Origin: Dudresnaya verticillata
Taxonomy: Eukaryota
Direction of reading: 5' to 3'
Length of the DNA stretch: 64,000 bases
Assembly: GCA_977862235.1 (NCBI GenBank)
Contig: OZ374560.1
Location: 2,232,001-2,296,000 of the forward strand
How positions within the stretch are numbered: position 1 is the first letter of the stretch; each line of letters opens with the position of its first letter. The notes below the pieces were generated by a model. The model searched no databases and was not told the origin of the DNA. It saw only the letters and a list, made by a program, of their open reading frames with translations. Shown piece after piece: positions 29,251 through 63,887 of this stretch. Position numbers and translations under genes: made by a program.

Positions 29251-29398
29251 CCAAGATTAAGAGGCGCTTCGAAAGTGAAATTAATCTCTAATCTGCAGGA
29301 TAATACTTCTTAGAAGAGTCGCATCTAAGATGGCTATGTCAGCCTTTAGCCAGAATAGGCATCTCCTTTATAATCCATCATGCTCAGGTGTTAACTCT

Positions 29399-35219: not shown

Positions 35220-35599
35220 AGAGAGAGGAGACCTTTATTAAAGAACAAGAGAGAAGCCCCTTAAGGGGGCTTAGGATTCAGAGCTACCATAAAGAGGCGG
35301 AGGAGCAAGCTTGCGGCGGTTGACACTCACCGCGACGCATTGGAGAACTAAAGAGAGTAAACGAGTAGTGAGGCGAAGTTTCTCCGTAGACGGAGAGGTT
35401 CTGCGCTTGCTGGCAATGAAATTAGCAATACGTTCGGCGCCAACTTCAAAGCCAGATCCAACACGGCCATAGACATCTACAACCATAGGATGGAGAACCA
35501 TATCCAAACTAGCGCATACGCGGCGGTAATGAGAGCGTTTGACACGTTCGCGAGCTGCAATGGCTTGGCCAGCAACGACACCAGTGGAACCATGAATAG
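35220..35599 (-). mobile_element. 5'-truncated RLE retrotransposon (family 2) retaining the endonuclease C-terminus, 9-bp TSD
   Basis: AATTACCTG at 35211-35219 and 35600-35608; encodes RERVKRSHYRRVC..LHPMVVDVYG..GFEVGAERIANF, homologous to the C-terminus of 43499-46120. Confidence 0.9.
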
Positions 35600-36649: not shown

Positions 36650-37426
36650 TCATTGCGGAAACAGGCCTAAGCTTCGCTCCACCATGCTTTCATCTCTGCC
36701 ACCTCTGGGCGTGTCCGGCTCAAAGTCTGACATCTTTGCAACGGCCTTTTCGATGTCATTTTCAACCTTGGCGAGTCCTTCTGCAATTCGAGAGATGTCT
36801 TGGAAATTGAGCTTCTCCTTTTTCAGCATGCGAGAGAGCACAGCACTTTCGATAAGCCTCAGCTTAACTACATTCAAGTATTCAGAATCTTCCGGGCCAA
36901 TGTATAGCGCCTGCGAGAGGAGAAAGTCTATCTCGCTCGCAGTTAGCTCAGACATATCCAACACAGCCAAATCTGTAACATACGCCACTCCTGACTTGTT
37001 CTTCTCCACTCCCCACTTTTGAGCCGAGACAGAGTAAGAGTACACAAGTAATCTACTCGAACAAATGCGTTGTTCATGAAGAGAACGACAAAGTCTTTCT
37101 TTTCCTGTGACTGCCCATTACTAACCCCTAAGAGCTTTCTGAGGCCATCTGTGAGAAGGCCCTGTGCTCCCCGAAAAATCTGCCAATGCCTCCATGATAT
37201 CAGCATTAATATCTTTACCGGCAGACGTACGAATTTGAGAGACACGCATGATTGTGCGACCACCTGCGACTTCATATTTCTTCACGGCTTCAGCGTTACC
37301 ACGAGCGCTTTTCATTTCCGCCATCATAGCATCTCTCTTGTTGCGGAGAACCATTAACATTTGGTCAATTTCTGCTTTCTGCTCAGTAGCTGCAGTAGAG
37401 GCCGCATTGCTAGCAACATTTCCCAT
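36650..37426 (-). CDS. Probable spliced gene of unknown function with N-myristoylation-like start (MGNVAS)
   Basis: Two adjacent protein-like ORFs (37121-37426 and 36650-37045) and a GTTAGT donor at 37125; the acceptor could not be resolved with confidence. Confidence 0.45.
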
Positions 37427-40760: not shown

Positions 40761-42136
40761 AGCCGGAAAACGGGTGCCAGATGATGTCGCACAAGGCTGG
40801 CTTTTTCAAAGGAGCAGGTAATACGACATGGGAAAGAGGCGTTGATCTGACCCGTTCCCTCCGATCCCAACTAAACGCGAATGCCGACTCTTGTAGCTGC
40901 TGCTGAATGAGTTGGTGGATATGTAAAATTTGGGAAGACGTTATATATAGAAGGCAGTTGCAAACGTCAACGACAAGCAGCTGCGCAACGTTCAGGTCGT
41001 AGTATACTTTGTATGCGTGAGTTCGAATCTCACCGCTGTCATCGGAGAGGGCAGCGTGGCCGAGCGGTCTATCTGGCAGATGTCCGCAATAAGGCGCTGA
41101 ACTGGGGCTGCTTTGCTTTCTCCTTTTTGCCTCTGGCTACAATTTGGATAACACGTTTAGGCCATCAACTACACGATGTCTTCATTTCAACTTGCAACTT
41201 TCAACCATATCAAGCAATTGCATCTGCAGTTGCTGCGCATTCATCTACCAGTGAGGCCAAGCGAGTCTGGAGAGTATGCTTCTCGAAGTGCATAAATGGA
41301 GCAAGCACAATATAATGCCGACTGGCAGTATTGGATACTTTGCGGGTGTGCTAGTTGCTGTGTTTTGCCTCGCTCTTTCCACATGCTATCAAACACTATG
41401 GAGCTCATTTGTGTACAACACGTCTGGTCGCTTATTCGGTTTTCAGTACGTGGGCAGCTTCCCAAATCCTTCCATAGGCAGTCAATGACTTGGCTGAGTA
41501 TGACCAATGCGCACCGATTCTCACTACTCGCCCAGTCATCAATGAACAATCCATACCGACAGCGAAGCCATTGTGCATAGTTGTCCGACAGACCAAGTCT
41601 CTTGATCCAAACTGCAACAGCAGCGGTGTTGTGGATCAACGCCTTTGTGCATCACAATGTCTAAACCGTTCCCACTTGAGGCGTGGCGCCGAAGGGTGTA
41701 CCACAAAGTGCGGTCGCGTGCGCTCTGACGAGGGACGCGCAACGGCCCACACAAAACGACGCACGTGTCCAGACGCGCGCTGCACGCCCAACCAGCGCGC
41801 AGAACGCGGAACGCATCGTCTGCCACTTCTTAGAGCGCCGCGCTCCCCGTCGCTGAGTTTCTTCCTCTTCTTCTCCCTCTGCTTATTGAGCCCTTGTTTC
41901 TGCATTCTGGCCTCAATCTTTCCGTGCTTTGTTTCTACCTCTTCCCCGCCCTGCCGCGCGTTAGTGCACCGCTTTTCGCTGCCGTCGCTGGCGTATTCTT
42001 CCCGCGCGCTTCGGGGGGAGAACTTGCTGTTCGAGTTCGTGCTACTCCTTTGTGTTCCGTCTTCACGCTTGGCGCTGCTTCCACTCCGGTTCGCCTCCAT
42101 CTCGCAGTGCTGTGTTACCCTCTATCTTTTCCCAAT

Positions 42137-43225
42137 ATGTCGCCGTCCAATCACGCCAAACGCTCTACCCAGGACGTACACCAAGACGCGTTTGTTGCTT
42201 TGACCCACGCTACCGTCGATTTCATGGCTACCTCTGCTGCACTATTGGACAAGGTCGTTGACCTTCAAAATCCTACCGCTGTGGACACCTTCCTCTCCAC
42301 TCTGGCCGACCTGCCTCGTGTGAAGGCGCTCTTACCCACGTTCGAGCGCAACCCCCACTTTCAGTCCCTGCTTCGCATCTTTTCGCACTTCTCTGCTGAC
42401 TCTGCTGTTTCTGCGAAACCGTCATCCGCTCCTTCGACCCCGCCGAGACCTTCGTATTTAGCGGCAACGACAACTGGTCCCGCCCCTAAACCGGTTCATC
42501 AGCTTCCAGTATTGGGTCGCAAGGGCCTCGTGGAGCATTCCAATGCTGGTAAAACACCGCTGTCTCGCAAATTCGCAGGTTCTGTTCGCGGCACAAACCG
42601 CGTCTTGTTCGGTGGGGATCAGAAGCGCCGTACTGCCACTGGCGCTCCCCCGCTTGCTTCCCCTGCTGAATTCCGCAAAGCGCTCAAGCAAGGTGGTTTC
42701 CCTGGCTCATGTGCTATCGTCCGCTCTGAAGACCCCACCGTGTTCTATGTCTGTGCTTCACTACGTGATCTCACCTACACGGAAGCTGCGTACAATTCGT
42801 TTACTGCTCTGGCCAAAGAATCGGACAACTTCGATGCCCCCCATCTGACCTTTTCCCCACCAATCGCTCTCAAGAATGTATTGACGTCGAGTGAAGATAT
42901 CAATACAATTGCGCGACCGCTACGAAATGAGATCAATCGTCTCGACGCTACAAGCTGTACCTGGCCTCCTCGAAAATACTTTTCTCTGGCACTGCGCTCA
43001 GAGTATGAAGCACTAGAAGAACGAATGACTTCACTCGGGCGCACGCTACCGAGTCTCACCGAACCCCCGACCGGTGCTGCTTCTTCTCGACCATCGCGTG
43101 TGTATCCCCGTTATTCTCGACCCGATTCTGATGGATGGACCACTGTTCTTGATTCCCATCCGCCCGCTCCTCCGTCGGCTTTGTCCCCAGATGTAACCGA
43201 CACTGCGATGCCTACGGCTGAGTAA
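42137..43225 (+). CDS. Retrotransposon ORF1, function unknown (362 aa from ATG 42137)
   Basis: Open frame inside the element; its stop overlaps the ORF2 start (TAATG); Pro/Ser-rich linkers. Confidence 0.75.
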   Translation: MSPSNHAKRSTQDVHQDAFVALTHATVDFMATSAALLDKVVDLQNPTAVDTFLSTLADLPRVKALLPTFERNPHFQSLLRIFSHFSADSAVSAKPSSAPSTPPRPSYLAATTTGPAPKPVHQLPVLGRKGLVEHSNAGKTPLSRKFAGSVRGTNRVLFGGDQKRRTATGAPPLASPAEFRKALKQGGFPGSCAIVRSEDPTVFYVCASLRDLTYTEAAYNSFTALAKESDNFDAPHLTFSPPIALKNVLTSSEDINTIARPLRNEINRLDATSCTWPPRKYFSLALRSEYEALEERMTSLGRTLPSLTEPPTGAASSRPSRVYPRYSRPDSDGWTTVLDSHPPAPPSALSPDVTDTAMPTAE

Positions 43226-46200
43226 TGGAAGAAACAACAACCCTCTTTCAAAAATGCCCTCGTCCGGACATCGTCTTTGCACTTCGTATCCCCACCGTCA
43301 AATATATTCCAAATTGTCTTCGTGCGGACTGGCACGCTTTATGCTTCCATCTTTTTAACCGATTCGCAGTCGCATCTACATGTACTGAAAAAGAAGAACG
43401 CTTCGCTAGTGTTTGTGCTGTGGCAAAGCTCGTGCTACGGTTTAATGGACGCGGAGAACCCAGAAATGGCAATAAGTCTGCACTGATTCGCCGTTTGCGT
43501 GACCGAATTCAACTGGCAATTCGCGGGCAATGGAATGACCTTTGGGAGCAAGCCTCCAGTGCCTTTCCCTCGCTTCCCAATACTTCTTGCCAACCTACAG
43601 TTGATCCTTTCCGCCAATGCCGTCGGTTTATGGCCGAGGGGGCCATCAGTAAGGCTGCGCGCGCTTTGTGCTCTACTACTTCTACTGTTATTGCTAATCC
43701 CAATACCAAGACGGTCATGGAATCGCTTCACCCGCGTCCGGAAATTCCAGTTAAACCCCGCTTGCCACAATCACTCCCAGCTGCATATACATTCAACATT
43801 CAACGAGGCGGATGTAAGAAGGGCTCTTAGAAGTCTTCCAGTACACAGCTCACCTGGCCCGGATGGTCTCCGTCCGCTTCATCTTAAGGCGTTAACGCAT
43901 GCCCCGGGTGGTTCGGAGCCATCCCACTCTGCAATCGTGGCTCTGACCGCCTTTGTCAACAAATGTGCTACGGGCTCTTTACCTCCTCGCTACAGTGCTT
44001 GGTTTGGGGGTGCCTTGCTTCTGGGTCTTCCGAAGCACCCATCGTGTGTTTCTATGCTTCGTCCTATTGCCATTGGTGGCATCCTTCGTCGTTTCCTTGC
44101 CCGCCTGTTGATGAAGAAGATTGCCCAGGACAATGCTATTCGTGATTACCTTCTTCCCCATCAATTTGCAGTGGGAATCCCTCATGGAGCCGAATCTATT
44201 ATTCACGCCATACGTTCTTTCGTGGAGTCTAATACTGAGCAAGACTATGTCCTTCTTAAGCTTGATGCCACCAATGCTTTTAATTGTGTTGAGCGTTCTA
44301 TTATTCTCAGTGAAGTTATCGAAAGAGCTCCTGGCATTGCAAAGTTTGTGCATTTCCTTTTCTCGACTGAACCCGTTCTTCTATTTGGTCAGTTTCAGTT
44401 GTTCAGTCGGACAGGTACACAGCAGGGTGATCCGTTGAGCATGCTACTTTTATCTCTTTCGATTCATCCCCTGCTCATCAACATGCTCTCTACGTTCGCC
44501 TCCATCAAACTTCTTGCTGCATATGCTGATGACATTCATGTTGCTGTTCCGCGTTCTATTGCTTTCGATGTTATCCAGTTTCTAAAGACCCGAGGCCCCA
44601 AAATTGGTTTCAATCTACACATAGCAGTGGGGAAAACAGAAGCTTGGTGGCCTTCTTTATCGTCCCGTCGTGTTTCTCGTTCCAACTCCCTAGGTTGTCC
44701 TATCAACAACCATTCTTTTATCACAGTTCTGGGCGCCCCTATTGGCAGTACTGAGGGCTGTTTACAACATCTAAGAACTAAGCATGAGCCCATCCAATAT
44801 TTCTGGGCCCAACTGAAGCAGCTTAATGATCCTCAACTCGTTTTTCATTTATTACGGTACTGTGCTGGAACTTCCAAGCTTTCATACCTACTGCGATGCA
44901 CTCCCCCGCAACTAACCCAAGCCATTTCATTAACACATGACTGTGGCATGCGTGGAGTGTTTGAACACACACACTTTCCACTGTCGGATGAATCCTGGGA
45001 TATGGTTTCGCTTCCCATGCGACACGGTGGACTAGGTCTTACAAATGCCCGTCACATTGCCCACTGCAGCTATATCACCTCCGTCCTGTCCTCTCCCGCC
45101 TGGATTCGATGCCTGGTACCTTTTGATTCTCCTACTTTGCACCATTTCCTCGCCCCGTCTCTTCATAACATTCGCGAACAGCAACTACTCCGTGAAGATC
45201 GTGAAAAATGCAGTGTTTCTTCTATCTTGTTGGCCGCATCTTCCATAGGCCATGGTGTCGTTCCCGCATTGTCCCAAGATCTTCTTCCCTATATTCAACG
45301 AAAATTACGACACGACTTCATGTCCCAGATGACTACTCAGCATAGCTCTCGTGCCCGAGTACGGATTCAATCTACCTCTACTGTCAACTCTAGCCGCCCT
45401 TTCAGTGCCCTCCCATATGCATCTTCTTCTACCCGCGTGCAACCCGACATATGGCTCACCATGCTCAAACTCAGACTGGGTGTGGCGATCTTCCGTGGTG
45501 ATCGCCCTTGTCCTGCTTGTCTCCATGGCACATCCGCTGAAGTTCCACTCCTTGATATCTATGGACACCATGCCACAATCTGTCGATCGGGAACTGGCAG
45601 CATTCGCCGCCATGATACCCTCCGAAATCAACTTGGGGCTTTCTTTCGTAATACTGCTCGGAACCATGGCGTTACTGTTCAGCTTGAACGCAACTTTTCC
45701 TACCTAGAGGAGACTGGGGATTCCCGAGTTATGGCGTCTTCTGCACGCACTGCTTCAGAAAGGCGTCGCGATGCCCGTCAATTACAACGTACTGAAGACC
45801 GTTTCGAAGAAGACCGACGTGACCATCTTCGTATGGATCTCTATGTTGATGACCCTGCGTTTGCACCCCTCCCGCAAGCATTTGACGTCTCCGTGGTGAC
45901 ACCACACCATCCAACTACACTGTCCAAAACGCCTCGCTCTCAACATCAAGCTATTCACCGCCGCGAGCAAGCTAAAGCCCGTCATTATCGTCGCTTATGT
46001 TCTACCAACCGGATAGATCTCCATCCTATGGTGATGGACATCTATGGTGCCATTGGTTCTGGGTTCGATCGAGGCGCTCAGCGCGTGGCGAATTTCCTAG
46101 CTGCTATGAAGGGTACTTAGCCGATATCTGAGAAACTATCTCTTCTCACCAACCTCACCTCTCTTGTACCTCAATCTGTCGCGGTGGCTGTTAACCGCCG

Positions 46201-46237
46201 TTTACTCTTCGACCGTCGCCTTTCAGATGAGTTTTAG
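43225..46237 (+). pseudogene. Retrotransposon ORF2 (RT + zinc knuckle + RLE) with one frameshift and one nonsense codon
   Basis: PGPDG, LRPIAIG, LDATNAFN, GTQQGDPLS, YADD, LPMRHGGLG, CPAC..HATIC, RHD, RMDL..D..E..K. A 7-bp duplication at 43791-43804 shifts the frame; TAG at 46118-46120 stands where other copies have TCG. Confidence 0.92.
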
Positions 46238-46351
46238 ATAAGCCCCCTTACGGGGCTGTAGTCTTTCCTATGCATAAAGGTCTCCATCTCTCCTCTTCTC
46301 TGCAATGGCGCAACACACTTTCTCCGCACTCGACATCGCCTTTGCTTTCCT

Positions 46352-49300
46352 TTACGTCTCCACCTCCAACACCAACACACGTCCGTCTCGGAGCCCGACG
46401 ACCAGTCGACCCTCCACAGCATTGTAGTCCCACGTCCCAGGCTCGGTCAAAGCTGCCGGAAGGGTCGCGAGAATCGGCCCGTCCTGCCCGAGGCGCACTG
46501 ACTGGCCCGAGACCCGTACGACAGCCTCCGCTGCAGACCCGCTCCGATGGCTTCCACTCCCGTGCAGCACTTCACTCTCACGAACTCTTCCAACAGCCGC
46601 CTCAATCTCCCGCAGACCATTTCCACTCACCTCATAGTAACGCTCATTCCCATTCCCATCACGAGCCTTCACAGTACTCGCCCCAACACATCCAACACTC
46701 GCAACAGGTGAATAAAATGTTTTCGGTTCGCCCACGGGCTTGCCGCTCCCCAACTCCCACACCCGCAACGTATCGTCCGAGCGGGACACGACGTGCCGCC
46801 CGTCTGGTGTCACCGCCACGAACCACACCGCATCCGTGTGACCGCGCAACGGCTCCCCCACGGGCTTGCCGCTCCCCAACTCCCACACCCGCAACGTCTC
46901 GTCCGACGACCCGGACACGACGTGCCGCCCGTCTGGCGTCACCGCCACGCACTCCACCGCATACGTGTGACCGCGCAACGGCTCCCCCACGGACTTGCCG
47001 CTCCCCAACTCCCACACCCGCAACGTCTTGTCCCGCGACCCGGACACGACGTGCCGCCCGTCTGGCGTCACCGCCACGCACTCCACCGAATCCTTGTGAC
47101 CGCGCAACGGCTCCCCCACGGGCTTGCCGCTCCCCAACTCCCACACCCGCAACGTCTCGTCCCACGACCCGGACACGACGTGCCGCCCGTCTGGCGTCAC
47201 CGTTACGCACCGCACCGAACCCGTGTGACCGCGCAACGGCTTCCCCACGGGCTTGCCGCTCCCCAACTCCCACACCCGCAACGTCTTGTCCCACGACCCG
47301 GACACGACGTGCCGCCCGTCTGGCGTCACCGCCACGCACGTCACATAACCCGTGTGACCGCGCAACGGCTCCCCCACGGGCTTGCCGCTCCCCAACTCCC
47401 ACACCCGCAACGTCTCGTCCGACGACCCGGACACGACGTGCCGCCCGTCTGGCGTCACCGCCACGCACTCCACCGCACACGTGTGACCGCGCAACGGCTC
47501 CCCCACGGGCTTGCCGCTCCCCAACTCCCACACCCGCAACGTCTCGTCCCACGACCCGGACACGACGTGCCGCCCGTCTGGCATCACCGTTACGCACCGC
47601 ACCGAACCCGTGTGACCGCGCAACGGCTCCCCCACGGGCTTGCCGCTCCCCAACTCCCACACCCGCAACGTCTCGTCCCACGACCCGGACACGACGTGCC
47701 GCCCGTCTGGCGTCACCGCCACGCACCGCACCCCATCCGTGTGACCGCGCAACGGCTCCCCCACGGGCTTGCCGCTCCCCAGCTCCCACACCCGCAACGT
47801 CTCGTCCCACGACCCGGACACGACGTGCCGCCCGTCTGGCGTCACCGCCACGCACAGCACCGTATTCGTGTGACCGCGCAGCGGTTCCCCCACGGGCTTG
47901 CCGCTCCCCAACTCCCACACCCGCAACGTCTTGTCCCGCGACCCGGACACGACGTGCCGCCCGTCTGGCGTCACCGCCACGCACTGCACTTCACCCGTGT
48001 GACCGCGCAGCGGCTCCCCCACGGGCTTGCCGCTCCCCAACGCCCACACCCGCAACGTCTTGTCGCCCGACCCGGACACGACGTGCCGCCCGTCTGGCGT
48101 CACCGCCACGCACTCCACCGACCTCGTGTGACCGTGCAGCGGCTCCCCCACGGGCTTGCCGCTCCCCAACTCCCACACCCGCAACGTCTTGTCCCGCGAC
48201 CCGGACACGACGTGCCGCCCGTCTGGGGTCACCGCCACGCAGTGCACCGACCTCGTGTGACCGCGCAGCGGCTCCCCCACGGGCTTGCCGCTCCCCAACT
48301 CCCACACCCGCAACGTCTCGTCCTCCGACCCGGACACGACGTGCCGCCCATCTGGGGTCACCGCCACGCACCACACCGCATTCTCGTGGCCGACGTACTC
48401 ACGGATGACAACGCTGCTTTCCAAGTCGATGAGCACTACTTTGTTCCTAATTCCTGCCACAACTTTTCCCTCATCCCCTGTCACAGCCAAGCTCCATACA
48501 CTGTCCGCACACGGGATTTCCATCTCTTGTCGACCACCAGGAATGTTCCAGCACCGAGTTAATGATCGAACTCGAGGTGTGGGGGACACCTTGCTGGCCG
48601 TCTCAAGGTACCGCCGCACGAGCCATGACTCATCGCATGAGTCCACCAAGCGCGACTGCATCTGGAACATCAGCTCCCTCGGGTTTCGAACAATGAACGC
48701 CCAGCTCTCCTGCGCTGCAGACCGCAGCAACTCCATACCCGCATCGAAATCTTCTTCACCAACCAACCCATTTGCCAAGCACGCCCACCGCAACTCTTTC
48801 ACATTCTCCTTCCACCCAGGGATGTCCAAAGGACTGCTATCTATGGTCATCCATCGTGGGTCAAGAAGAAGGCTGGCTAATTCCGTGTCACTCGGAGCTG
48901 GTATACCCTGCGAAATAATCGCCACCACATCAGCCATAGTACAACGCTCCTTCCACTTCGACCGTAAACAACGCAACGCAGCCGTCCTCATCGCCTCATC
49001 CCCAATGGAGTCCGCCCATTCTCGTGCGACTGCTCCAAGCCGACCCTCTCTTGCTAGACTCGGGGCGTTAATGAAATCCAGTTCCGAAAAGGGCGTCTCC
49101 CCACCCCCCAGGAAACACAAAAGTAGTCCAAAGCTCCACACATCCCACGACGGACGCGTCGGCGCCTTTCTTTGGTCCTTGAGCACCTCTGGTGGCATGA
49201 AAACAACCGTCCCTGACGCAGCTCCTCTACTACTCCTCAGCGTATACGTTTCCATCTGCTTTGTCACCTGCACTTCTCGCGACACGCCAAAGTCGCACAG

Positions 49301-50551
49301 CTTGGCAGGCCTCACAACCTCACCGTCCCTAACACGCAACAACACGTTTTCAGGCTTCACGTCCCTGTGAACAACGCTCTTCTCGTGCAGATGTGCGAGC
49401 GCAGCAGCCACATCCAGCGCGATACCCTTTCTCACAGCCATGTCCTCCACCGCTGCCGAGTATTCTTGAATCGCTTCGTGGAGGCTGCAGGTCATGCGTT
49501 CTAGAACAATCATCGGGTTGTGGCCGTCTTCTGTCTCATCGCTCTTCGCCCAGATGGCCCCATGTGCCTCCAAGATACAGCGATGCCGGTACTGAATCAG
49601 GCCGTGCACCTCACGCAAAAACTTTGGCTTGAACTTCTCCAGTTCCGGCTTCTTTACCCTTAGCTCTTTGACTGCCACTTCCAGGAATGTTTCACCTTGG
49701 CGGAGCTTCGCTTTGTACACCCTGCTGAAACCGCCTTCACCCAACTCGACCCATCCTCCCCTTCTGCCTTTCTCAAACACCAAGTCGTCAAACTTCAACT
49801 CCCACCGAGTCTGGAAGTCGTCTATCTTCTGCTGTAGCTTCCGTTTCACATCTTCCGGGACATCGCTTTTCGCTATCAACTTCATCGCCATGGGCAGCGA
49901 TGATATGAATTGGATCTCGTCCTCCTCCTCCTTATCAAGCTGTTCAGATTGTATACTCATTGTCGGGCCTGGAGAGTGGGGCGAGGTCTGACTGGGGCTA
50001 CTCGAGCTGCTCGGATCTGTTCCTTGAAGTCGCGCAGAAGTGGCATCGATTGAGACCACCTCATCTTGTGCCGTCACGTCTCCCGCAGAGGAAGAGCTCG
50101 GAACGTCTTTGATGACATGCTTGTGCAACAGTTCATATATTTCACTGAGGCGGGAGTCATGGATCTGAAAGTGTTTCACCATGAGCCGACAAGCATCCAA
50201 GTGTCTTTCTAGCCCTGTCACAAGGGATTGTACCTTTATGATCGCCTCACGAGCTTCGATGCTGCCTAGCAACGAGCGTAAAGGCTTTCGTTTGTCTACC
50301 TGCTGCGAAAGTGACTTCAAATGGGGCTGAATCATTTCCAACTCTGCTCTAATGTGGCTGCTGACATCGTCGTGGATGGCGGAGAGGTAGTCGTTGTTGC
50401 GAAAGTCTTGATAAGCCAAGCGAATACGTTGAATGCCATTGGCTATCGTCACGAAGGATGTTGCGTTTTGTTTGCGAGCTTCAAGACTATTACGAATGTG
50501 CTGAACAACCTTGATACTGGTCTCGACGAGAGAAATCACAGAGTCCACCAT
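46352..50551 (-). CDS. Helical-bundle / protein kinase / APAF-1-like helical / WD40-repeat protein, copy A (1399 aa from ATG 50551; 13 conserved WD40 repeats)
   Basis: Kinase motifs GEGGFS, VAVK, HRDVKPEN, DFG, GTVVFMPPE and DVWSFG; GH..WE repeats of 43 aa; ATG chosen because it is conserved in copy B. Confidence 0.93.
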   Translation of the reverse strand: MVDSVISLVETSIKVVQHIRNSLEARKQNATSFVTIANGIQRIRLAYQDFRNNDYLSAIHDDVSSHIRAELEMIQPHLKSLSQQVDKRKPLRSLLGSIEAREAIIKVQSLVTGLERHLDACRLMVKHFQIHDSRLSEIYELLHKHVIKDVPSSSSAGDVTAQDEVVSIDATSARLQGTDPSSSSSPSQTSPHSPGPTMSIQSEQLDKEEEDEIQFISSLPMAMKLIAKSDVPEDVKRKLQQKIDDFQTRWELKFDDLVFEKGRRGGWVELGEGGFSRVYKAKLRQGETFLEVAVKELRVKKPELEKFKPKFLREVHGLIQYRHRCILEAHGAIWAKSDETEDGHNPMIVLERMTCSLHEAIQEYSAAVEDMAVRKGIALDVAAALAHLHEKSVVHRDVKPENVLLRVRDGEVVRPAKLCDFGVSREVQVTKQMETYTLRSSRGAASGTVVFMPPEVLKDQRKAPTRPSWDVWSFGLLLCFLGGGETPFSELDFINAPSLAREGRLGAVAREWADSIGDEAMRTAALRCLRSKWKERCTMADVVAIISQGIPAPSDTELASLLLDPRWMTIDSSPLDIPGWKENVKELRWACLANGLVGEEDFDAGMELLRSAAQESWAFIVRNPRELMFQMQSRLVDSCDESWLVRRYLETASKVSPTPRVRSLTRCWNIPGGRQEMEIPCADSVWSLAVTGDEGKVVAGIRNKVVLIDLESSVVIREYVGHENAVWCVAVTPDGRHVVSGSEDETLRVWELGSGKPVGEPLRGHTRSVHCVAVTPDGRHVVSGSRDKTLRVWELGSGKPVGEPLHGHTRSVECVAVTPDGRHVVSGSGDKTLRVWALGSGKPVGEPLRGHTGEVQCVAVTPDGRHVVSGSRDKTLRVWELGSGKPVGEPLRGHTNTVLCVAVTPDGRHVVSGSWDETLRVWELGSGKPVGEPLRGHTDGVRCVAVTPDGRHVVSGSWDETLRVWELGSGKPVGEPLRGHTGSVRCVTVMPDGRHVVSGSWDETLRVWELGSGKPVGEPLRGHTCAVECVAVTPDGRHVVSGSSDETLRVWELGSGKPVGEPLRGHTGYVTCVAVTPDGRHVVSGSWDKTLRVWELGSGKPVGKPLRGHTGSVRCVTVTPDGRHVVSGSWDETLRVWELGSGKPVGEPLRGHKDSVECVAVTPDGRHVVSGSRDKTLRVWELGSGKSVGEPLRGHTYAVECVAVTPDGRHVVSGSSDETLRVWELGSGKPVGEPLRGHTDAVWFVAVTPDGRHVVSRSDDTLRVWELGSGKPVGEPKTFYSPVASVGCVGASTVKARDGNGNERYYEVSGNGLREIEAAVGRVRESEVLHGSGSHRSGSAAEAVVRVSGQSVRLGQDGPILATLPAALTEPGTWDYNAVEGRLVVGLRDGRVLVLEVET
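46730..48400 (-). repeat. 13 tandem 129-bp WD40 repeats with high internal conservation
   Basis: Consensus GEPLRGHTxxVxCVAVTPDGRHVVSGSxDxTLRVWELGSGKPV. Confidence 0.97.
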
Positions 50552-52179
50552 CGTGTGAAGGCAAAAAATGCCAACAGAAAGAAGCAACTGGATTTGGCCT
50601 TGTGATGAATCGGCAGTTGGCGAGCTTGACGATAGTGGAAACGACTCAAAAGCCGGATTTTGGGCGGCGGTTGACGGGGAACAGACCGTTGCTGTTTCGT
50701 ACTTGGAAAGTTCTTGTGAAGCAGAAAACGCTTGTGGGCTCGCGCCGTTCACGCCAGTATCCACCAAGGGTAGTGCACCTGGGTCGGGTGCGTACGAGTC
50801 TGTGAGTTCTCCGCGGTTTTTCTGAATATCGGTTGTGATGTCGACACCGCCGTTGGTGGTCACACAGCTCAGATGTATTCTCAGCCACAGACTCGCCTGC
50901 GGGACGCAACAAAGCGGGTCACTGGAAGCTGTATGACTTCATCTGCTTGCACACTTCTCCAGCCGAGTCGCAAGGACAGCCAAGAAATGCGGTCGAAACG
51001 GTTGTCGGGATTGGTCGGAACTGCTCCGAATCAGCACAAGCGGGCAAACTTGTTGTAAGTGCGGAAGCAGCCCTTGAGCGACAACAAGCACAGCAGAATC
51101 AGTCAGCCATTGGCGTTCCGCGCTTGACGGTGGGACATTGCCAGGGACGGTTCTGCACTGTTGGCATCACCAAACAATTGCTCGCGCAAGCACTTCATGC
51201 GGTACCCAACCGGACCAACTACTGCGTTGAATGCACACACATCTCCCCGTCCACCATCGCGCAATACACTACGCGCCGGCAAATCTCGTTCTCGCGAGGC
51301 AGGCACAACTTGTGCCCGACGCTGCGGCACACACTTCTTGCGCATGCTTGTGGTTCCCACAGCGAGCGTCCCGGAGGCGCGGCTTTCGCGCGCAGCTTGT
51401 CCGCCGCTAGCGGGCGCTGTCGACGGGCGGCGCCGCTGAGCTCCACGAGCAGCAGCGTGGCAGATGTTGGTGCGGACGACGGACGGCGTTCGGCGTGGGT
51501 GGGTGGCGGTTGGTGTTGACGCAGCCTTGAGAGCGCCATGGTGCTCGCGCCACGCTCCGTACGGCAGCTGCGGAGAAACGAAAGACACAGACCTGCGCAC
51601 TTTCGTTTCGGCGACCGGCGGCAGAGCGTAATTTGGAAAATCGGTAACTGTTTTGACGCGTTTGTAATTGACGTGTGCAAGACGTTCTGTCCGTGTTGTA
51701 CAACGGGGCGGACGCCGGCCATCCAACGTATGCCTCTTGGCAGCAATGCAACGCATTCATTTACAAGTGAGTTTGGACGGGTCAGGAGAGTATGCTTCCC
51801 GCAGCGAATAAATGCAACAGGCAACATCATACGGACTAGAGACGAAGCATCTTGAAGCTGCTGCGAGAAAGATTGGAGTCCAGGTGTACTGCAGGGTTAT
51901 CCGAGATGGGTTGACACATACAATCGAGCGCAGAAGCGTCCCTGTGCATGTTGGGCTTGCCATGGAGGGATCAAGCTGAGTTAAGATCAGCGAGGTGGTC
52001 GTCTCTCGCATCTCCCAGTAGGTCAGAATAGACCTGAACACTTACTTGCTGATAACCGAGGCACAGCAGTGAGTCTGATGATCGGGCTTTTGTCTAAGGC
52101 ATCATCTCGCAATAAAGAGCACTCGATAGAATTTTCCATTAAATTCTTCGTTAAGAGCCATTACACACTCAACGACTCC

Positions 52180-52620
52180 CTATTTGTCATTCATTGAAGC
52201 TAAATGCACATATAGCACGGACAAGAATTACAATGAGTCCCAGAATCTTGCGAACCTTACCATAATAAAGCAATTCAATTCAACACAGAAGGTCCAGCCC
52301 CTCGCCCAATCTCTCCAAGCCCTGTCGCTCCCAGAACCACTCGCCGCTGATATCTGCGCCATCTCTGACACAATCCCATCTATCCGGGACGCCTGCAGCC
52401 ACGCGTTTCCCCTGTCTACTTCCCACCCTCAACCCAGTCGGTCCCCACGTAACTGATCCCTTTCCGAAGGATAGCTCCACCCCCTTTACCGGTCATAGGA
52501 TACTTTTAATGGATGTCATCAAGAATAACCTTAACAACTGTAGCTTGCCGGTGTGCTTGCCCATGGGCCATCGTCGCCCGCACAAGACCACCCTAAACAA
52601 CCATTAAAATCAAGCATCAC
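52180..52620 (+). mobile_element. 3' end of family-4 repeat inserted in duplication unit B (insert spans about 51830-52620)
   Basis: VQPLAQSLQALSLPEPLAADICAISDTIPSIRDACSHAFPL and the tail are homologous to 22137-22605; absent from unit A. Confidence 0.65.
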
Positions 52621-53604
52621 AATATAATGCCGACTGGTAGTATTGCATACTTTGTGGGTGTGCTAGTTGCTGTGTCCTCGCTCTTTCCACATGCTATCAA
52701 ACACAATGGAGCTCATTTGTGTACAACACGTCTGGTCGCATATTCGGTTTCTAGTACGTGGGCAGCTTCCCAAATCCTTCCATAGGCAGTGAATGACTTG
52801 GTCGAGTATGACCAATGCGCACCGATTCTCACTACTCGCCCAGTCATCAATGAACAATCCATACCGACAGCGAAGCCATTGTGCATAGTTGTCCGGCAGA
52901 CCAAGTCTCTTGATCCAAACTGCAGCAGCAGCGGTGTTGTGGATCAACGCCTTTGTGCGTCACAATGTCTAAACCGTTCCCACTGGAGGCGTGGCGCCGA
53001 AGGGTGTAACACAAAGTGCGGTCGCGTGCGCTCTGACGCGGGACGCGCAACGGCCCACACAAAACGACGCACGTGTCCAGACGCGCGCTGCACGCCCAAC
53101 CAGCGCGCAGAACGCGGAACGCATCGTCTGCCACTTCTTAGAGCGCCGCGCTCCCCGTCGCTGAGTTTCTTCCTCTTCTCTGCAATGGCGCAACACACTT
53201 TCTCCGCACTCGACATTGCCTTTGCTTTCCTTTACGTCTCCACCTCCAACACCAACACACGTCCGCTTAGCAGCCCGACGACCAGTCGACCTTCCGCAGC
53301 ATTGTAGTCCCACGTCCCAACCACGGGCAAAGCTGCCGGAAGGGTCGCGAGAATCGGCCCGTCCTGCCCGAGGCGCACTGACCGCCCCGAGACCCGTACG
53401 ACAGCCTCCGCTGCAGACCCGCTCCGATGGCTTCCACTCCCGCGCAGCACTTCACTCTCACGAACTCTTCCAACAGCCGCCTCTATCTCCCGCAGACCAT
53501 TTCCACTCACCTCAAAGTAACGCTCGTTCCCTTTCCCATCACGAGCCTTCACAGTACTCGCCCCAAAACTTCCAACACTCAGAACAGGTGACGAGAACGC
53601 TTCC

Positions 53605-54640
53605 GGTTCGCCCACGGGCTTGCCGTTCCCCAACTCCCACACCCGCAACGTCTCGTCCCCCGACCCGGACACGACGTGCCGCCCGTCTGGCGTCACCGCC
53701 ACGCACCACACCCCATTCGTGTGACCGCGCAACGGCTCCCCCACGGGCTTGCCGCTCCCCAACTCCCACACCCGCAACGTCTCGTCCCCCGACCCGGACA
53801 CGACGTGCCGCCCGTCTGGCGTCACCGCCACGCACCGCACCCAACTCGTGTGACCGCGCAACGGCTCCCCCACGGGCTTGCCGCTCCCCAACTCCCACAC
53901 CCGCAACGTCTTGTCCATCGACCCGGACACGACGTGCCGCCCGTCTGGCGTCACCGCCACGCACCGCACCCAACTCGTGTGACCGCGCAACGGCTCCCCC
54001 ACGGGCTTGCCGCTCCGCAACTCCCACACCCGCAACGTCTCGTCCCACGACCCGGACACGACGTGCCGCCCGTCTGGCGTCACCGCCACGCACTGCACCC
54101 AATGCGTGTGACCGCGCAACGGCTCCCCCACGGGCTTGCCGCTCCCCAACTCCCACACCCGCAACGTGCTATCCGTCGACCCGGACACGACGTGCCGCCC
54201 GTCTGGCGTCACCGCCACGCATCACACCCCATTCGTGTGACCGCGCAACGGCTCCCCCACGGGCTTGCCGCTCCCCAACTCCCACACCCGCAACGTCTCG
54301 TCCCGCGACCCGGACACGACGTGCCGCCCGTCTGGCGTCATCGCCACGCACTGTACCCAACTCGTGTGACCGCGCAACGGCTCCCCCACGGGCTTGCCGC
54401 TCCCCAACTCCCACACCCGCAACGTGCTATCCGTCGACCCGGACACGACGTGCCGCCCATCTGGCGTCACCGCCACGCACAGCACCCAATCCGTGTGACC
54501 GCGCAACGGCTCCCCCACGGGCTTGCCGCTCCCCAACTCCCACACCCGCAACGTCTCGTCTTCCGACCCGGACACGACGTGCCGCCCGTCTGGCGTCACC
54601 GCCACGCACCACACCCTATTCTCGTGGCCGATGTACTCGC
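53605..54640 (-). repeat. 8 tandem 129-bp WD40 repeats
   Basis: Same consensus as 46730-48400 with different variable codons. Confidence 0.97.
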
Positions 54641-55112
54641 GGATGACAACACTGCTTTCCAAGTCCATGAGCACTACTTTGTTCCCAATTCCTGCCACAA
54701 CTTTTCCCTCATCCCCTGTCACAGCCAAGCTCTCTACACTGTCCGCACATGGGATTTCCATCTCTTGTCGACCACCAGGAATGTTCCAGCACCGAGTTAA
54801 TGATCGAACTCGAGGTGTGGGGGACACCTTGCTGGCCGTCTCAAGGTACCGCCGCACGAGCCATGACTCATCGCATGAGTCCACCAACCGCGACTGCATC
54901 TGGAACATCAGCTCCCTCGGGTTTCGAAAAATGAACGGCCAGCTCTCTCGCGCTGCTGACCGCAGCAACTTCATGCCCGTATCGAAATCTTCTTCACCAA
55001 CCAACCCATTTGCCAAGCACGCCCACCGCAACTCGTTCACATTCTCCTTCCACCCAGAGATGTCCAAAGGACTGGTATCTATGGTCATCCATCGTGGGTC
55101 AAGAAGAACGTT

Positions 55113-55346
55113 GGCAAATTCCACATCTTTCGGAGCATCAACCCCGACCCCTGGTACATTCCGCGAGACTATCCCCAACAGATCCGCCATGGCAAATTCT
55201 GCGTCACTCGGAGTATCAACCCTGAGCTCTGGTACATCCCGCGAGATCGTCCCCACCACATCTGCCATGGCTGATTCAGCGTCACTAGGAGCATCATTCC
55301 CGACCCCTGGTATACCCTGCGAAATAATCGCCACCACATCAGCCAT
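55113..55346 (-). repeat. Three diverged 78-bp (26-aa) coding repeats MADxxxxxSxxxPxxxxDxPxDxExA
   Basis: ATG codons at 55346, 55268 and 55190; copy A has only one shortened unit. Confidence 0.88.
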
Positions 55347-58300
55347 AGTGCAACGCTCCTTCCACTTCGACCGTAAACAACGCAACGCAGCCGTCCTCAT
55401 CGCCTCATCCCCAATGGAGTCCGCCCACCGTCGTGCGACTGCTCCAAGCTGATCCTCTCTTGCTAGACTCGGGGCGTTAATGAAATCCAGTTCCGAAAAG
55501 GACGTCGCCCCACCCCCCAGGAAACATAAAAGTAGTCCAAAGCTCCACACATCCCACGACGGACGCGTCGGCGCCTTTCTTTGGTCCTTGAGCACCTCTG
55601 GTGGCATGTAAACAACCGTCCCTGACGCAGCTCCTCTACTACTCCTCAGCGTATACGTCTCCATCTGCTTTGTCACCTGCACTTCTCGCGACACGCCAAA
55701 GTCGCACAGCTTGGCAGGCCTCACAACCTCGCTGTTCCTAACACACAGCAACACGTTTTCAGGTTTCACGTCCCTGTGAACAACACTCTTCTCGTGCAGA
55801 TGAGCGAGCGCGGCAGCCACATCCAGCGCGATACCCTTTCTCACTGCCATGTCCTCCACAGCTGCCCAGTGCTTTTGAATCGCTTTGTGGAGGCTGCATG
55901 TCATACGTTCTAGAACAATCATCGGGTTGTGAACGTCTTCAGTCGCACCGATCCTCGCCCAGATGGCACCATGTGCCTTCAAGATACAACGATGCCGGTA
56001 CTGAATAAGGGCGTGCATCTCACGCAAAAACTTTGGCTTGAACTTCTCCAGTTCCGACTCCTCTACTTTCAGTTCTTTGACTGCCACTTCCAGGAATGTT
56101 TCACCTTGGCGGAGCTTCGCTTTGTACACCCTGCTGAAACCGCCTTCACCCAACTCGACCCATCCTCCCCTTCTGCCTTTCTCAAACACCAAGTCGTCAA
56201 ACTTCAACTCCCACCGAGTCTGGAAGTCGTCTATCTTCTGCTGTAGCTTCCGTTTCACATCTTCCGGGACACCGCTTTTCGCTATCAACTTCATCGCCAT
56301 GGGCAGGGATGATATGAATTGGATCTCGTCCTCCTCCTCCTTATCAAGCTGTTCAGATTGTATACTCCTTGTCGGGCCTGGAGAGTGGGGCGAGGTCTGA
56401 CTGGGGCTACTCGAGCTGCTCGGATCTGTTCCTTGAAGTCGCGCAGAAGTGGCATCGATTGAGACCACCTCATCTTGTGCCGTCACGTCTCCCGCAGAGG
56501 AAGAGCCCGGAACGTCTTTGATGACATGCTTGTGCAACAGGTCATATATTTCACTGAGGCGGGAGTCATGGATCTGAAAGTGTTTCACCATGAGCCGACA
56601 AGCATCCAAGTGTCTTTCTAGCCCTGTCACAAGGGATTGTACCTTTGTGATCGCCTCACGAGCTCCGATACTGCCTAGCAACGAGCGGAAAGGCTTTCGA
56701 TTGTGTACCTGCTGCGAAAGTGCCTCCAAATGGGGCTGAACCATTTCCAACTCTGCTCTAATGTGGCTGCTGACATCGTCGTGGATGGCGGAGAGGTGGT
56801 GGTTGTTGCGAAAGTCTTGATAAGCCACGCGAATACGTTGAATGCCATTGGCTATCGTCACGAAGGATGTTGCGTTTTGTTTGCGAGCTTCAAGACTATT
56901 ACGAATGTGCTGAACAACCTTGATACTGGTCTCGAGGAGAGAAAGCACAGAGTCCACCATCGTGTGAAGGCAAAAAACGTCAACCGAAAGAAGCAACGGG
57001 ATTTGGTCTTGTGATGAATCGGCAGTTGGCGAGCTTGACGGTAGTGGGAAGCGGCTTAAAAGCCGGAGTTTTGAGTGGCGGTTGACGGCGAACAGGTTGC
57101 TGCGGTTGCTGTTTCGTACTCTGGAAGTTTTCTCAAAGAGAAAGCGCTTGGTTGGTTGCTTGCCGAAAGCGTTTATGGGCTCGCGTCGTTGACGCCAGTA
57201 TGCACCAAGTGAAACAAAACTCGTTTACTCATCGCCGACGCCGAGCTAAAAGGGCCGAATGAAATCAACGCAAAAATAACCAAAAAGCTAGAAAGTGGCG
57301 GACAGAAAAGCCGCTCTGCGCGTACTCCCGACGTGTTCTTGATGAGAGCTCACCAGGTCCGCACGCCACCACAGTACAGTATAAGCGAAGTACTTGTGGA
57401 GGGCCTCTTACGTCAGCACGTCAGTACAGTAGCTGCGCCGGTCGAGTACGGCACTGTACCGCGAAAGCGCCACGTCCTTGTTTCGCCAAGGCGTATGCTG
57501 CGCGGGGCGGGTGCAACTTCGACCCCGGCGTCGGCGGTGACACAGGTCAGATAAATTCCCAGTCACAGACTGAGCCCGCAACAATGCCGGTCACTGAGGC
57601 GGGTGCAAGACTCATCTCCGAGGGGAACAATCAGAGGAAGAAGCAGAGAAAGGAATGGGTCGCTGCTCAACCACGAAGAAAACCGGCCGGTTGTGATGGT
57701 GACAATAACGTTGGTTGTGAGAGGAAAATAGGATTCCTGTCCAGGGGCAATCATAGCGCTCCCCCTCTATCTACTCGCCTTCCACGCCACCCCTGCTGTT
57801 CTGTTTCAATACTTGTCTGAGACGAGGTCGCTGCGCCAGTGGATAAGCAACTGCGTTCCTTGCCGCACATTACAATGTATCTGGCCCTTCCCAACCTCAC
57901 AGTAGTGTGCCCCGAGCCTTCTAGGACAGAGACCGTCAACAAAAGCATGACAAGCACCGCCTACTACAGTACTTCGCCGTTCTTCCCATGGGCACGGAGA
58001 AGAAGTGCGTCATCATGACGCTCATCACGCGACGATGCTAGCCACGCCAAACACCAATACAGAGAGAACATATCTCTCGGCTGCCCTTTTACCCACCACA
58101 AACCCTGCCCAGCTCCAAATCTTCACCCTTGTCGCAACGCCCGCGAGATCCGCGAGGATGCGAGAGCGCGGTATCTACCACACACTCAGCGCAGCCTCAT
58201 ACACTTTCTACATCTGCTCGAATGAGTGAGTGAAGTAACAGTACGCCGCTCCAGAGCCGCACCTTCCATAACAAATGGTATCATATGGGTGCAGTAAGAA

Positions 58301-59739: not shown

Positions 59740-59967
59740 ATGGCTCTTTTCAAGATGTTCGCGATGCTGTTCGTGGTTCTCCTCGTCTCCGGCGCTGTTA
59801 ATGGTGCTGCAGTGAAGGAGGCGAAGCGCCCGGAGGTCAACCTGCAGACCATGATCAAGTTCATGAAGGAGCTGTTCCCGTGTCAGACGGATAGCGACTG
59901 CAACAAGCAGATGTCCGGATATTCGTTCTGTGACCGCGATCATGCCTTCTGCATTCCCCTGTATTAA
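59740..59967 (+). CDS. Small secreted 4-Cys peptide precursor, copy 1 (75 aa)
   Basis: Signal peptide, pro-like segment with KR, and C-x5-C-x9-C-x6-C; near-identical second copy with diverged flanks; AAAAATGG context. Confidence 0.85.
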   Translation: MALFKMFAMLFVVLLVSGAVNGAAVKEAKRPEVNLQTMIKFMKELFPCQTDSDCNKQMSGYSFCDRDHAFCIPLY

Positions 59968-60444
59968 GAGGAGTGGAACAATCTGCATGGTTGGACTAGC
60001 ATGACACGCAGCTTCGGTTTTCAGAAGGTCCATCCTCGTATGTTAATCTCAAGGTAGGGATGCCATGCCAGCAGCTTATACATGTTGGCAAATGCTCCCC
60101 TTATCTGTTAGTAGTGCAGTCCTTTTTTCCAAGCGTGCCTCTTTGTCGGAGATTAACCAATCGCAAAGAGCAAACCAAATCTTATGTCGCAGAGGGTCTT
60201 CACAACTATGGAAACAGATGAGCTACATGAGCAACTCTGTTCATGTCTATTGTTTATTGTTGTTTCAGGTGCTAGCTATGGGTGCATACTGTGCCATCTA
60301 ACTCGTCTCACTTCTTTAGTTCTAAAATGCGTTCGAAGAGGCTGTTATCCGGCGTAAGCCGGTAGACCGTCGCCTAGAGCCCAGTCCTTGCTAAGCCCCA
60401 TAAGGAGCTTGTAGACTTCTGATGAAAAAAGGGAATACACGTAT

Positions 60445-60626
60445 GAAGGTTACTTCGCCGATATCCGAAAAACTATCTCTTCTCACCCACCTCACCTCTC
60501 TTGTACTTCAATCTTTCGCGGTGGTTATTAACCGCCGTTTATTCTTCGACCGTCGCCTTTCAGATGAGTTTTAGGTAAGCCCCCTTACGGGGCTGTAGTC
60601 TTTCCTATGCGTAAAGGTCTCCATCT
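60445..60626 (+). mobile_element. 5'-truncated family-1 retrotransposon 3' end, 7-bp TSD
   Basis: Matches 46108-46289; CACGTAT at 60438-60444 and 60627-60633. Confidence 0.88.
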
Positions 60627-61551
60627 CACGTATACAACAACAAACTCCTGTTCCTGTGAGGTAAATTTATACAACATAAAGTCTTTCAGGTTCGCTAAAG
60701 CTAGCTAGATCAACAAACATCATCCGCAAGTATCAAGCCATAAAGATGATGAAGAGATACTATTGATAAACACCATCCTCGAGGCTTGAGGCTGCAATTA
60801 GCGCGTAGCTACTCGAATTAATTCTCGGAATCCTGCTGAATGTGACCCTCGAATGCTTTCCGGGAGCAACAGAATATCAGACAGCCAGTATTACCAAGAA
60901 GAAGTATGTTCATGCGAAGAGCCAACTTCTGTTCTGTGGTAAACGCAGAGTCCTCAAATCCATCCTCACAAAAAGCTTTTTTGAGGTTCGCTCAGCGTTA
61001 TAGTTACTGTGCAGCAGAGACGCTACTTCTGACTCGTCTATCTGTAGCAATTATATCGTTAAACACGAGCGTTGGTTATGAGCGTTTAACCAGAGAACAG
61101 AGTTTTTGTACTTTACCAATTTGGTACCAGCGCGTTACAATGTGTGCAGTATCGTGCTGCGGGCTTCGATAACCTGTTCGGAGCACTGCTTACAACCATA
61201 CAAAGAATCACGATGGCTGCAATACTTTACCATTGCAATACAGGTGAGAGATATTTCTGAGAGCATCACTCGGTGGCCACATAAAAAGAAGACATAGCAT
61301 ACCGTCTGCACGAAGATGCAACATAAGGTGTTCCCGAGCCGCTCTCGCAAATGGATATGCCGAAAAGCGAACAGGGCCCAAGCAGCAGAGCGACGTGCTG
61401 CAGCAAGCGCGACACGGAGAAATCTCTCGAACACTCGTGACTTTGCTGCAACAAAAGTAGTACAGTACTGTACTAACTCGTTCCAATCTGCTGACAATCT
61501 ACGACTGCGGGAATGATGCAGCGACTCAGTGCCCGGAGATCAAGAGGGTAT

Positions 61552-62582: not shown

Positions 62583-62810
62583 ATGGCTCTTTCCAAGATG
62601 TTCGCGATGCTGTTCGTGGTTCTCCTCGTCTCCGGCGCTGTTAATGGTGCCGCAGTGAAGGAGGCGAAGCGCCCGGAGGTCAACCTGCAGACCATGATCA
62701 AGTTCATGAAGGAGCTGTTTCCGTGTCAGACGGATAGCGACTGCAACAAGCAGATGTCCGGATATTCGTTCTGTGACCAGGGTCATGCCTTCTGCATTCC
62801 CCTGTATTAA
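62583..62810 (+). CDS. Small secreted 4-Cys peptide precursor, copy 2 (75 aa)
   Basis: Three amino-acid differences from 59740-59967; TATAAAA near 62466. Confidence 0.85.
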   Translation: MALSKMFAMLFVVLLVSGAVNGAAVKEAKRPEVNLQTMIKFMKELFPCQTDSDCNKQMSGYSFCDQGHAFCIPLY

Positions 62811-63887
62811 GGAGGATGAGCTGTATGGCTAGAGTTATGAATCCTGCTCAGCAGCTATGGGTTTCAAAACCTTCTACCCATACTGTAACAGTCAAGATAG
62901 GATACACATGCCAGCAGCTTATATAGGTCGGCGAAGGTTTTCCATGTTTTTGTCTGGTTCGAACGCATATGTTGTAGTGCAGGTATGTCTTCCAGTAGTA
63001 TGCCATTGTTTGAGATAAATCAAACGCAATGTCCAAATCAAATCACATACCTTTGAGAGTATGCATGACTGTGAAAAGCATATGAGCTACGCCAGCTGCT
63101 CTGGTGCTAGCTGTGAGAACACACCATGTAAGATCACCATTAGCAACCAACATAGCATGTCAACACCATCAGCCTATCAAGCTATCTGCTCTCGCGAACG
63201 TCGCAAGTACTGACACACGCACCCCTGTCCCCTTCGGTAGTAAATATTGCAATATTTCCGCCATTATGCCCCAATAATATCTGCAATATATGCCTATGCC
63301 GTGCAATAAGTTTGTGCAATGTGATGCTGTTTTATGCGCCCTTCGGAACGATATATGTGATTGTGACAGCTTCGCGTCCAAAAACCGTTCATTCATTTTG
63401 AGGAAGATAAGCACACAGCTTTAGTTTATTCTAAGGAGCAAGCCTGGGAAAGGGTCTAATTACCTGGATACATAACAGGAGGAGGGGGATGGGTTGCAGC
63501 AATTCACGCTAACTGCAACAGATTGAAGAACGAGCGTAGCAAGGGACGTAAAAAGAGAGCAAGCTTCTTAGCGAGGTCTAGAAAACGCTATATTCTCGGG
63601 ATCCAACTCTACAGATGCCCCTCACGCACAGAACCGCACATATGCGAGTCGCATACTGCACTTAGCAATAGGGCTTCCAATATTACTACTCAACCCAATA
63701 GGTATTGCAATATACAATGTCACTACAACAAGAATTGCACTTTGCATCCAGAAACTCAATGTGCTATTGCTATTGTGCATTGCAATTAATTGCCCGACAG
63801 CCCTGCTTGTGTCTCTTGTTCTCCAATCTGAGCTCTCAGAACCAATCGAACAAAACAGTCCTACGGTCTATTGAGTGACAGCTCTTG

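Follow-up and report, generated by a model that had tools for sequence, protein, structure and literature searches.

Within a 64,000-nucleotide stretch of the Dudresnaya verticillata genome (GenBank assembly GCA_977862235.1, contig OZ374560.1, positions 2,232,001 to 2,296,000; hereafter the window), two neighboring genes, A and B, encode arrays of WD40 repeats that are nearly identical except at five codons. What kind of protein carries such an array, and what are the five codons for? We find the array joined to a predicted N-terminal helix bundle and a protein kinase. The reading that we favor, and consider somewhat better than even, is that these tandem bundle-kinase-WD40 genes, with residues of the binding face under diversifying selection, encode an intracellular non-self sensor that would signal or kill without a NACHT/NB-ARC switch.

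Tandem Repeats Finder placed two minus-strand arrays of a 129-bp unit at 46724-48381 (12.9 copies) and 53604-54621 (7.9 copies), each with 93% nucleotide matches, the near-identity that is a trait of NWD/HNWD proteins of the HET-D/E type. The arrays encode 13 WD40 repeats in gene A and 8 in gene B with 43 residues per unit; the last repeat of gene A (A13) is one codon shorter than the other units. When the glycine of the GH motif is counted as codon 1, the hypervariable positions are codons 4, 5, 7, 23, and 25, which hold 7 to 8, 8, 7, 7, and 4 different residues, respectively. These five codons make up 11.6% of the unit and contain 1374/2122 pairwise nucleotide differences (65%). Across units, 90/129 columns are invariant, with a mean of 10 differences per 129 bp. 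An earlier note on this DNA had listed a five-residue signature for each repeat, and all 21 agree with the translation, the TGA in repeat B4 included. The same note had called the units nearly invariant at synonymous sites. Outside the five codons, 29 of 38 third positions are indeed fixed, with the nuance that the proportion of synonymous differences (pS) between repeats, 0.043-0.059, is about that between the A and B paralogues away from the arrays (0.066 overall, with regional values of 0.01-0.11).

We tested for selection with minimum change counts on the aligned repeats, a tree-free measure that recombination does not inflate. The five codons hold 30 nonsynonymous changes on 12.1 sites, compared with 17 synonymous changes on 33.7 sites unit-wide, giving a ratio of nonsynonymous to synonymous rates (dN/dS) of 4.9 (p = 9e-8); the remaining 38 codons give 0.31. 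The four positions fixed a priori from Podospora HET-D/HET-E yielded a ratio of 4.7 (p = 1.5e-6), and gene A alone or gene B alone, with or without edge repeats, yielded ratios of 3.8-8.6 (p at most 1.6e-4). In single-codon tests corrected for 43 codons, codon 4 (p = 0.036) and codon 5 (p = 0.024) were significant, and codons 7 and 23 (0.13) and codon 25 fell below significance.

Codon models, run with our own code on FastTree topologies with scaled branch lengths, preferred M8 to M7, with twice the log-likelihood difference (2dL) at 56.8 on a tree of the whole unit, 53.1 on one of the left part, and 78.8 on one of the right part. M8 called codons 4, 5, and 7 on all three trees, codon 23 on two, and codon 25, the weakest of the five sites, on one. 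Neutral simulations covered six settings of 400 runs each and included a doubled mutation rate and the picking of the top five of 43 neutral codons; none of the 2400 runs attained the observed top-five diversity. The silent sites between the hot codons are quiet, with codon 6 reading GTG in 20/21 units and codon 22 invariant. With dN/dS above 1, M8 preferred on all three trees, and no neutral run reaching the data, diversifying selection almost certainly acts at these five codons, as the earlier note had claimed.

In Podospora HET-D/HET-E, the selected codons 7, 9, 25, and 27 are described as pairs beside conserved residues, in the d-a loop and the b-c turn on the top face of the propeller (PMC1805685). 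Codons 5, 7, 23, and 25 of our unit correspond to these four, with equal spacing (2/16/2), and they flank the conserved V and D. The equation of the variable sites with the Podospora top-face positions therefore holds for four codons by spacing and location, and codon 4 is an additional fifth site outside the four strong ones of Podospora. The propeller is the confident part of the AlphaFold2 model (pLDDT, the predicted local distance difference test, mostly 77-91 per block) and matches WD40 propellers with E values down to 4e-35. Mapped onto this model, as had been proposed, codons 4 and 5 lie before strand a, codon 7 lies at its start, and the b-c turn holds codons 23 and 25; the placement was read from the secondary-structure string of the model. 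The hypervariable codons are thus predicted to line the top face, at the d-a loop and b-c turn. In the degenerate blade that precedes the array, two of the four differences between A and B, W686E and R702G, fall at the equivalents of codons 7 and 23.

Genes A and B are intronless-looking tandem paralogues with 92% amino acid identity outside the array. Along the protein follow an N-terminal helical domain, a serine-rich linker, two helices, the kinase, a further helical domain, the degenerate blade, the array, and a 123-residue tail, which in gene A is likely made of degenerate blades that close the propeller, judging from its beta-strand pattern. We placed the start methionine of gene A where its relatives also begin and downstream of frame-breaking A/B indels. 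Divergence between the paralogues is patchy (48392-50551 versus 54630-56960), with 2-3 differences per 150 bp over a large share of the N-terminal part, rising to 10-15 in codons 51-100 and 301-400. In the bundle, A and B differ by 14 nonsynonymous changes and 1 synonymous change, an excess that is not significant (Fisher p = 0.21).

What does the array sit on? AlphaFold2 folds the N terminus into a four-helix bundle (pLDDT about 72-93 per block over residues 1-140). The ESM Atlas places this domain near the MLKL_N, RPW8, and MCAfunc clusters (top matches 0.93-0.94), and the ten best named matches all share a family or clan with MLKL_N. By VIA-align it matched Rx-CC (Z 11.7, root mean square deviation [rmsd] 3.1, 107 residues aligned), NRG1 CC-R (9.4), MLA13 (9.2), MLKL (8.8), and also NRC2. 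A second MLKL match (Z 8.6, rmsd 2.6, 93 aligned) has 22% identity, the highest among the best 50 matches listed, which do not include the HeLo domain of HET-S. In Pfam, MLKL_N was found in 3/32 family members (best E 0.0046) and PF17111, which is Helo_like_N (PMC9815663), in 2/32; one of nine trimmed N-terminal domains matched MLKL_N at E 1.7e-4. Throughout the family, the N-terminal helix has a hydrophobic or amphipathic character. Together these leads suggest that the bundle is probably homologous to MLKL/HeLo. The two helices ahead of the kinase are conserved, and the fold search does not align them to the MLKL brace.

The kinase keeps intact VAVK, alphaC-E, HRD, DFG, and APE-equivalent elements, with K295, E314, D397, N402, D420, and E455 present, and in an alignment of 16 rows, 15-16 preserve the catalytic residues. 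Its best matches among solved kinase structures include Roco4, BIK1, and CTR1. Judged by these residues, gene A would not share the catalytically dead pseudokinase state of MLKL. Only about 170 amino acids separate the kinase from the repeats. No NACHT or NB-ARC domain appeared among the Pfam matches listed or on this inter-domain segment, and neither protein has a Walker A motif. The post-kinase helical domain has no Pfam match and no PDB sequence match; the ESM Atlas gives a weak lead to APAF1_C (score 0.78), which would fit capture of a sensor module from a STAND-type WD40 protein. Our verdict is that A and B would work like the sensor domain of HET-D/E, yet are not members of the NWD/NLR group, and would be built like MLKL, yet with a kinase whose sequence is not that of a pseudokinase.

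Relatives with both bundle and kinase have 21-33% identity, and the N-terminal domain was detected at E < 1e-3 in 26/154 proteins tested. The 29 relatives chosen by coverage comprise 24 with Sel1, one with Hsp70, one with VHL, one with an N-terminal cyclin, two with the kinase only, and none with WD40; a set of 32 family members includes 22 with Sel1, one with Hsp70, and one with VHL. This search was biased to Sel1. Its profile included columns from Sel1 repeats, and it covered the best 150 of 11441 matches at E <= 1e-30, so the absence of WD40 among the relatives is weak evidence. In a kinase tree, the WD40 genes sit, tentatively, among Sel1-bearing members (support 85/87). The bundle was found in 40/294 proteins compared, all of them this family or Sel1-type look-alikes. 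A homologue search restricted to 2035-5000 amino acids gave five matches, none over the N terminus; a metagenome scan with gene A gave no match, and a metagenome profile scan gave 80 generic kinase loci with best-segment identity of 26-41%. In three family members (P0157, P0221, and P0227), the kinase is followed by Hsp70 or by a pair of VHL beta domains, or is preceded by a cyclin. These additions recall the integrated decoys of immune receptors, and fusion by gene calling is possible. Red algal genome papers count proteins with WD40 and Sel1 among the potential receptors for pathogens (PMC12115072).

How much of this is familiar from known systems? Repeats of high identity whose surface residues are under selection are well documented for fungal NLRs (PMC4986451, PMC12222747). 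The Podospora NWD/HNWD proteins HET-D/E (PMC1805685, PMC12222747) and the fungal HIC-repeat NLRs (PMC4986451) share with genes A and B near-identical WD40 repeats, the same four selected positions, degenerate flanking blades, and signs of repeat exchange. Unlike Podospora NWD/HNWD, the genes here have no NACHT and no HET domain; they have a kinase and a helix bundle, a 43-residue unit, and the fifth variable codon. In animal and plant MLKL (10.1101/681015; PMC12881547), a four-helix bundle, brace helices, and a kinase fold follow one another in the order predicted here, and the bundles resemble each other weakly in sequence and fold. Plant MLKL-like proteins are described as pseudokinases in the same two sources, whereas genes A and B keep the catalytic residues and add a hypervariable WD40 sensor after the kinase. 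The MLKL-like proteins of Glomeromycotina (PMC8778642) combine an MLKL-like kinase with a repeat tail, the layout of most relatives here; compared by description only, their tail is Sel1 and ours is high-identity WD40. Repetitive WD40 proteins in general, bacterial kinase fusions included, have been noted to behave in this way (PMC5587647), and bacterial kinase-WD40 proteins such as PkwA (PMC5587647) likewise join a kinase to repetitive WD40 with variable hotspot residues, but none of the bacterial-type kinase-WD40 matches compared has the N-terminal bundle. A literature search that left out supplements (red algal domain tables among them) and most subscription papers found no description of a bundle, an intact kinase, and hypervariable WD40 repeats in one protein. 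In our judgment, the repeat dynamics are already known and the domain layout is a new variation on known designs.

Within the arrays, repeats A7 and A10 are one base apart, as are A8 and A12, and repeat B4 joins a left block one base from that of B8 to the T-D-S right block of B2. Some repeats are therefore recent within-gene copies or recombinants. The earlier note had gone further, proposing that left and right variable blocks reassort; beyond these few clear cases, a general four-gamete test is not decisive. Incompatibility is as common within the left block (22/66 pairs) as between left and right (33/84), so recurrent mutation or short-patch conversion is not separable from block shuffling in general. 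Edge repeats pair across the genes (A1 with B1, A13 with B8), and inner repeats do not align as orthologues. Repeats of A and B are not differentiated outside the five codons (p = 0.64) and are mildly so within them (p = 0.03). These patterns support turnover within genes since the duplication; ongoing exchange between A and B is not demonstrated, because repeat pS equals paralogue pS. The binding specificities that the earlier note had attributed to recombination are, with no ligand known, hypothetical.

From these parts a working order can be proposed. Repeat turnover would supply combinations of residues, and selection would retain those that alter what is bound. Ligand binding may then cluster or release the kinase, and (auto)phosphorylation by the kinase could free the bundle, much as MLKL is released by RIPK3. 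The bundle-kinase chassis is likely older and usually bears Sel1 repeats; the WD40 module, together with the helical domain before it, was likely grafted onto it. We regard a recognition function as likely; a role of the bundle in membrane damage or cell death is plausible but short of probable. Tentatively, and with considerable doubt, the family as a whole may consist of single-chain "sensor-kinase-executioner" receptors, in which the logic of necroptosis (a sensor, a RIPK-like kinase, and an MLKL-like bundle) is held in one protein free of a nucleotide-binding oligomerization domain (NOD). Swappable sensors (Sel1, Hsp70/VHL as integrated decoys, and selected, recombining WD40) would then form the variable immune repertoire of the lineage, for which the intron-poor genes and the style of the retroelement suggest a red alga.

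Several results weigh against the non-self-sensor reading. The fold matches of the bundle to immune domains (Z 8.6-12.2) lie under the value of roughly 13 that VIA-align requires of helical bundles, and scores as good or better were reached by IncA and by designed bundles (Z 13.9 and 12.6). Foldseek with the N-terminal model gave no match at E <= 0.001, the N-terminal profile against PDB sequences reached MLKL only insignificantly (E 0.58, over non-matching residues), and the gene A N terminus has no Pfam match under E 0.001 (SesA 0.028). The kinase and the helical domain are of low confidence in the single-sequence model (pLDDT < 50). Copy B is interrupted by a stop codon, and the A and B proteins have no known ligand or phenotype. 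On the side of selection, tree-based tests can be inflated by recombination, and synonymous changes are also elevated within the five codons (5 on 2.9 sites; local ratio about 1.4), so the high dN/dS depends on the unit-wide synonymous rate. We read this excess as hitchhiking on old, retained codon variants, because the silent sites of the adjacent codons 3, 6, 22, 24, and 26 are almost fixed.

Could the pattern arise with no positive selection at all? A recent expansion in which five surface codons are unconstrained or locally hypermutated, for instance by a process like that of diversity-generating retroelements (DGRs), would agree with the similarity of repeat and paralogue pS, with the synonymous excess just described, with variation of codon 4 mostly at the two A positions of AAT, and with the reverse transcriptase gene that adjoins gene A. 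The neutral simulations speak against it and largely refute relaxed constraint; the interleaved silent sites are quiet; and the neighboring reverse transcriptase belongs to an ordinary non-LTR element (one lacking long terminal repeats) that was inserted after the duplication. We rejected a DGR target, as the sole silent adenine (CCA, codon 13) is invariant in 21/21 units, changes away from the hot codons are mainly G>A and G>C, and the reverse transcriptase is of the non-LTR type with a target-site duplication. We consider this explanation very improbable. An assembler that collapsed, expanded, or shuffled the arrays is a concern in principle, as short-read assemblies of such arrays are reported to be unreliable (PMC12222747), and our data are one assembly with no usable reads for repeat number or order; the nine sequencing-run matches at the locus included three pieces of 139-184 bases at a depth of 2.6-3.8, too thin to serve as evidence. 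One kinase piece combines alleles of A and B, one repeat piece shows a left/right pairing that the window lacks, and the run did not cover 17000-36999. All 21 units are distinct (minimum one base apart), however, and free of frameshifts, and their differences concentrate, as errors would not, in the first and second positions of codons that are structurally equivalent. Assembly error is thus rejected for the site pattern, for which we hold it extremely improbable, and repeat number, repeat order, and the stop in gene B are still exposed to it.

Other alternatives accept the selection and differ in what the protein does. The genes may encode a sensor or substrate-recruiting kinase with no death function, in which the WD40 array selects variable targets, foreign or self, these or a downstream partner are phosphorylated by the kinase, and the bundle serves only for oligomerization or as an adaptor. 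The catalytic residues retained in all or nearly all aligned rows, unlike those of MLKL pseudokinases, agree with this, as do fold matches that include generic and Cbl-type bundles and the report that plant MLKL immunity is separable from cell death (10.1101/681015). A hydrophobic or amphipathic N-terminal helix family-wide and sequence-level leads to the MLKL_N/HeLo-like/SesA group point the other way, and we think such a kinase unlikely. Allorecognition or mating, with a polymorphic protein of the same species as the ligand, as HET-C is for HET-D/E, would account for variable positions equal to those of the Podospora incompatibility genes. No partner locus is seen within the window, and the idea overlaps with the non-self-sensor reading, under which the ligand may be of either kind; as a separate explanation, it is improbable.

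The features of the two genes and the adjoining retroelement are collected in Table 1. This element is absent at the equivalent site of gene B. Its second open reading frame is split across two frames (43225-43830 and 43487-46120), and truncated 3' retroelement copies lie near 15061-15655, 21359-22103, 22603-22743, and 60442-60627. Just upstream of gene B, at 59740-59967 and about 62584-62811 (plus strand), lies a pair of paralogous genes for small cysteine peptides that look secreted. The two are 85% alike across 420 bp, and the first has a weak Pfam defensin-like match (E 0.021). Farther away, two very cysteine-rich proteins with signal-peptide-like starts (2557-3816 and 9657-10883, plus strand) are built of 74-residue (222-bp) tandem units and have no convincing Pfam family. 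A repeat of about 100 bp that may be a small mobile element is dispersed in both orientations, with copies 88-99% alike, at 11133-11236, 12818-12926, 23311-23389, 29149-29251, and 35219-35326. The window also holds an open reading frame of the metallo-beta-lactamase fold with a signal-peptide-like start (29969-30553, minus strand) and a C2H2 zinc-finger gene (32511-33539, plus strand). An Rfam search returned no matches, and an exact look-up of ten proteins of the window found none of them.

Table 1. Features of genes A and B and of the adjoining retroelement, in window coordinates
Feature	Position	Strand	Remarks
Gene A	46352..50551	-	Single open reading frame, 1399 amino acids: helical bundle, linker, kinase, helical domain, WD40 array, tail
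Gene A N-terminal four-helix bundle	50111..50551	-	Residues 1-147; MLKL/HeLo/CC-like (predicted)
Gene A helices ahead of kinase	49799..49957	-	Residues 199-251; conserved; MLKL-brace-like placement inferred
Gene A protein kinase domain	48923..49747	-	Pfam Pkinase, E 3.7e-37
Gene A helical domain between kinase and propeller	48512..48895	-	
Gene A degenerate WD40 blade	48392..48514	-	Before repeat 1
Gene A array	46718..48391	-	13 near-identical WD40 repeats of 129 bp; hypervariable codons 4, 5, 7, 23, 25
Gene A C-terminal tail	46355..46723	-	123 amino acids; no Pfam match
Gene B	53232..56960	-	Tandem paralogue of A; TGA at codon 913
Gene B tandem units after kinase	55112..55346	-	Three units of 78 bp; 57 extra codons compared with A
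Gene B array	53604..54629	-	8 near-identical WD40 repeats
Premature TGA in gene B	54222..54224	-	Hypervariable codon 7 of repeat B4; real stop or assembly error
Non-LTR retroelement	41872..46290	+	RVT_1, E 6.8e-9; 9-bp target-site duplication; about 50 bp past gene A stop

In genes A and B, repeat behavior known from fungal NLRs is joined to a different chassis. This suggests that the principle "homogenize the scaffold, diversify the face" is general for recognition repertoires and independent of NOD modules. Should the bundle work as an executioner of the MLKL type, genes A and B would make kinase-controlled immune cell death directly testable in a single protein, from a eukaryotic lineage that belongs to neither the animals, the seed plants, nor the fungi. 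If true, they would belong to an immune receptor family that NLR-centered surveys would overlook.

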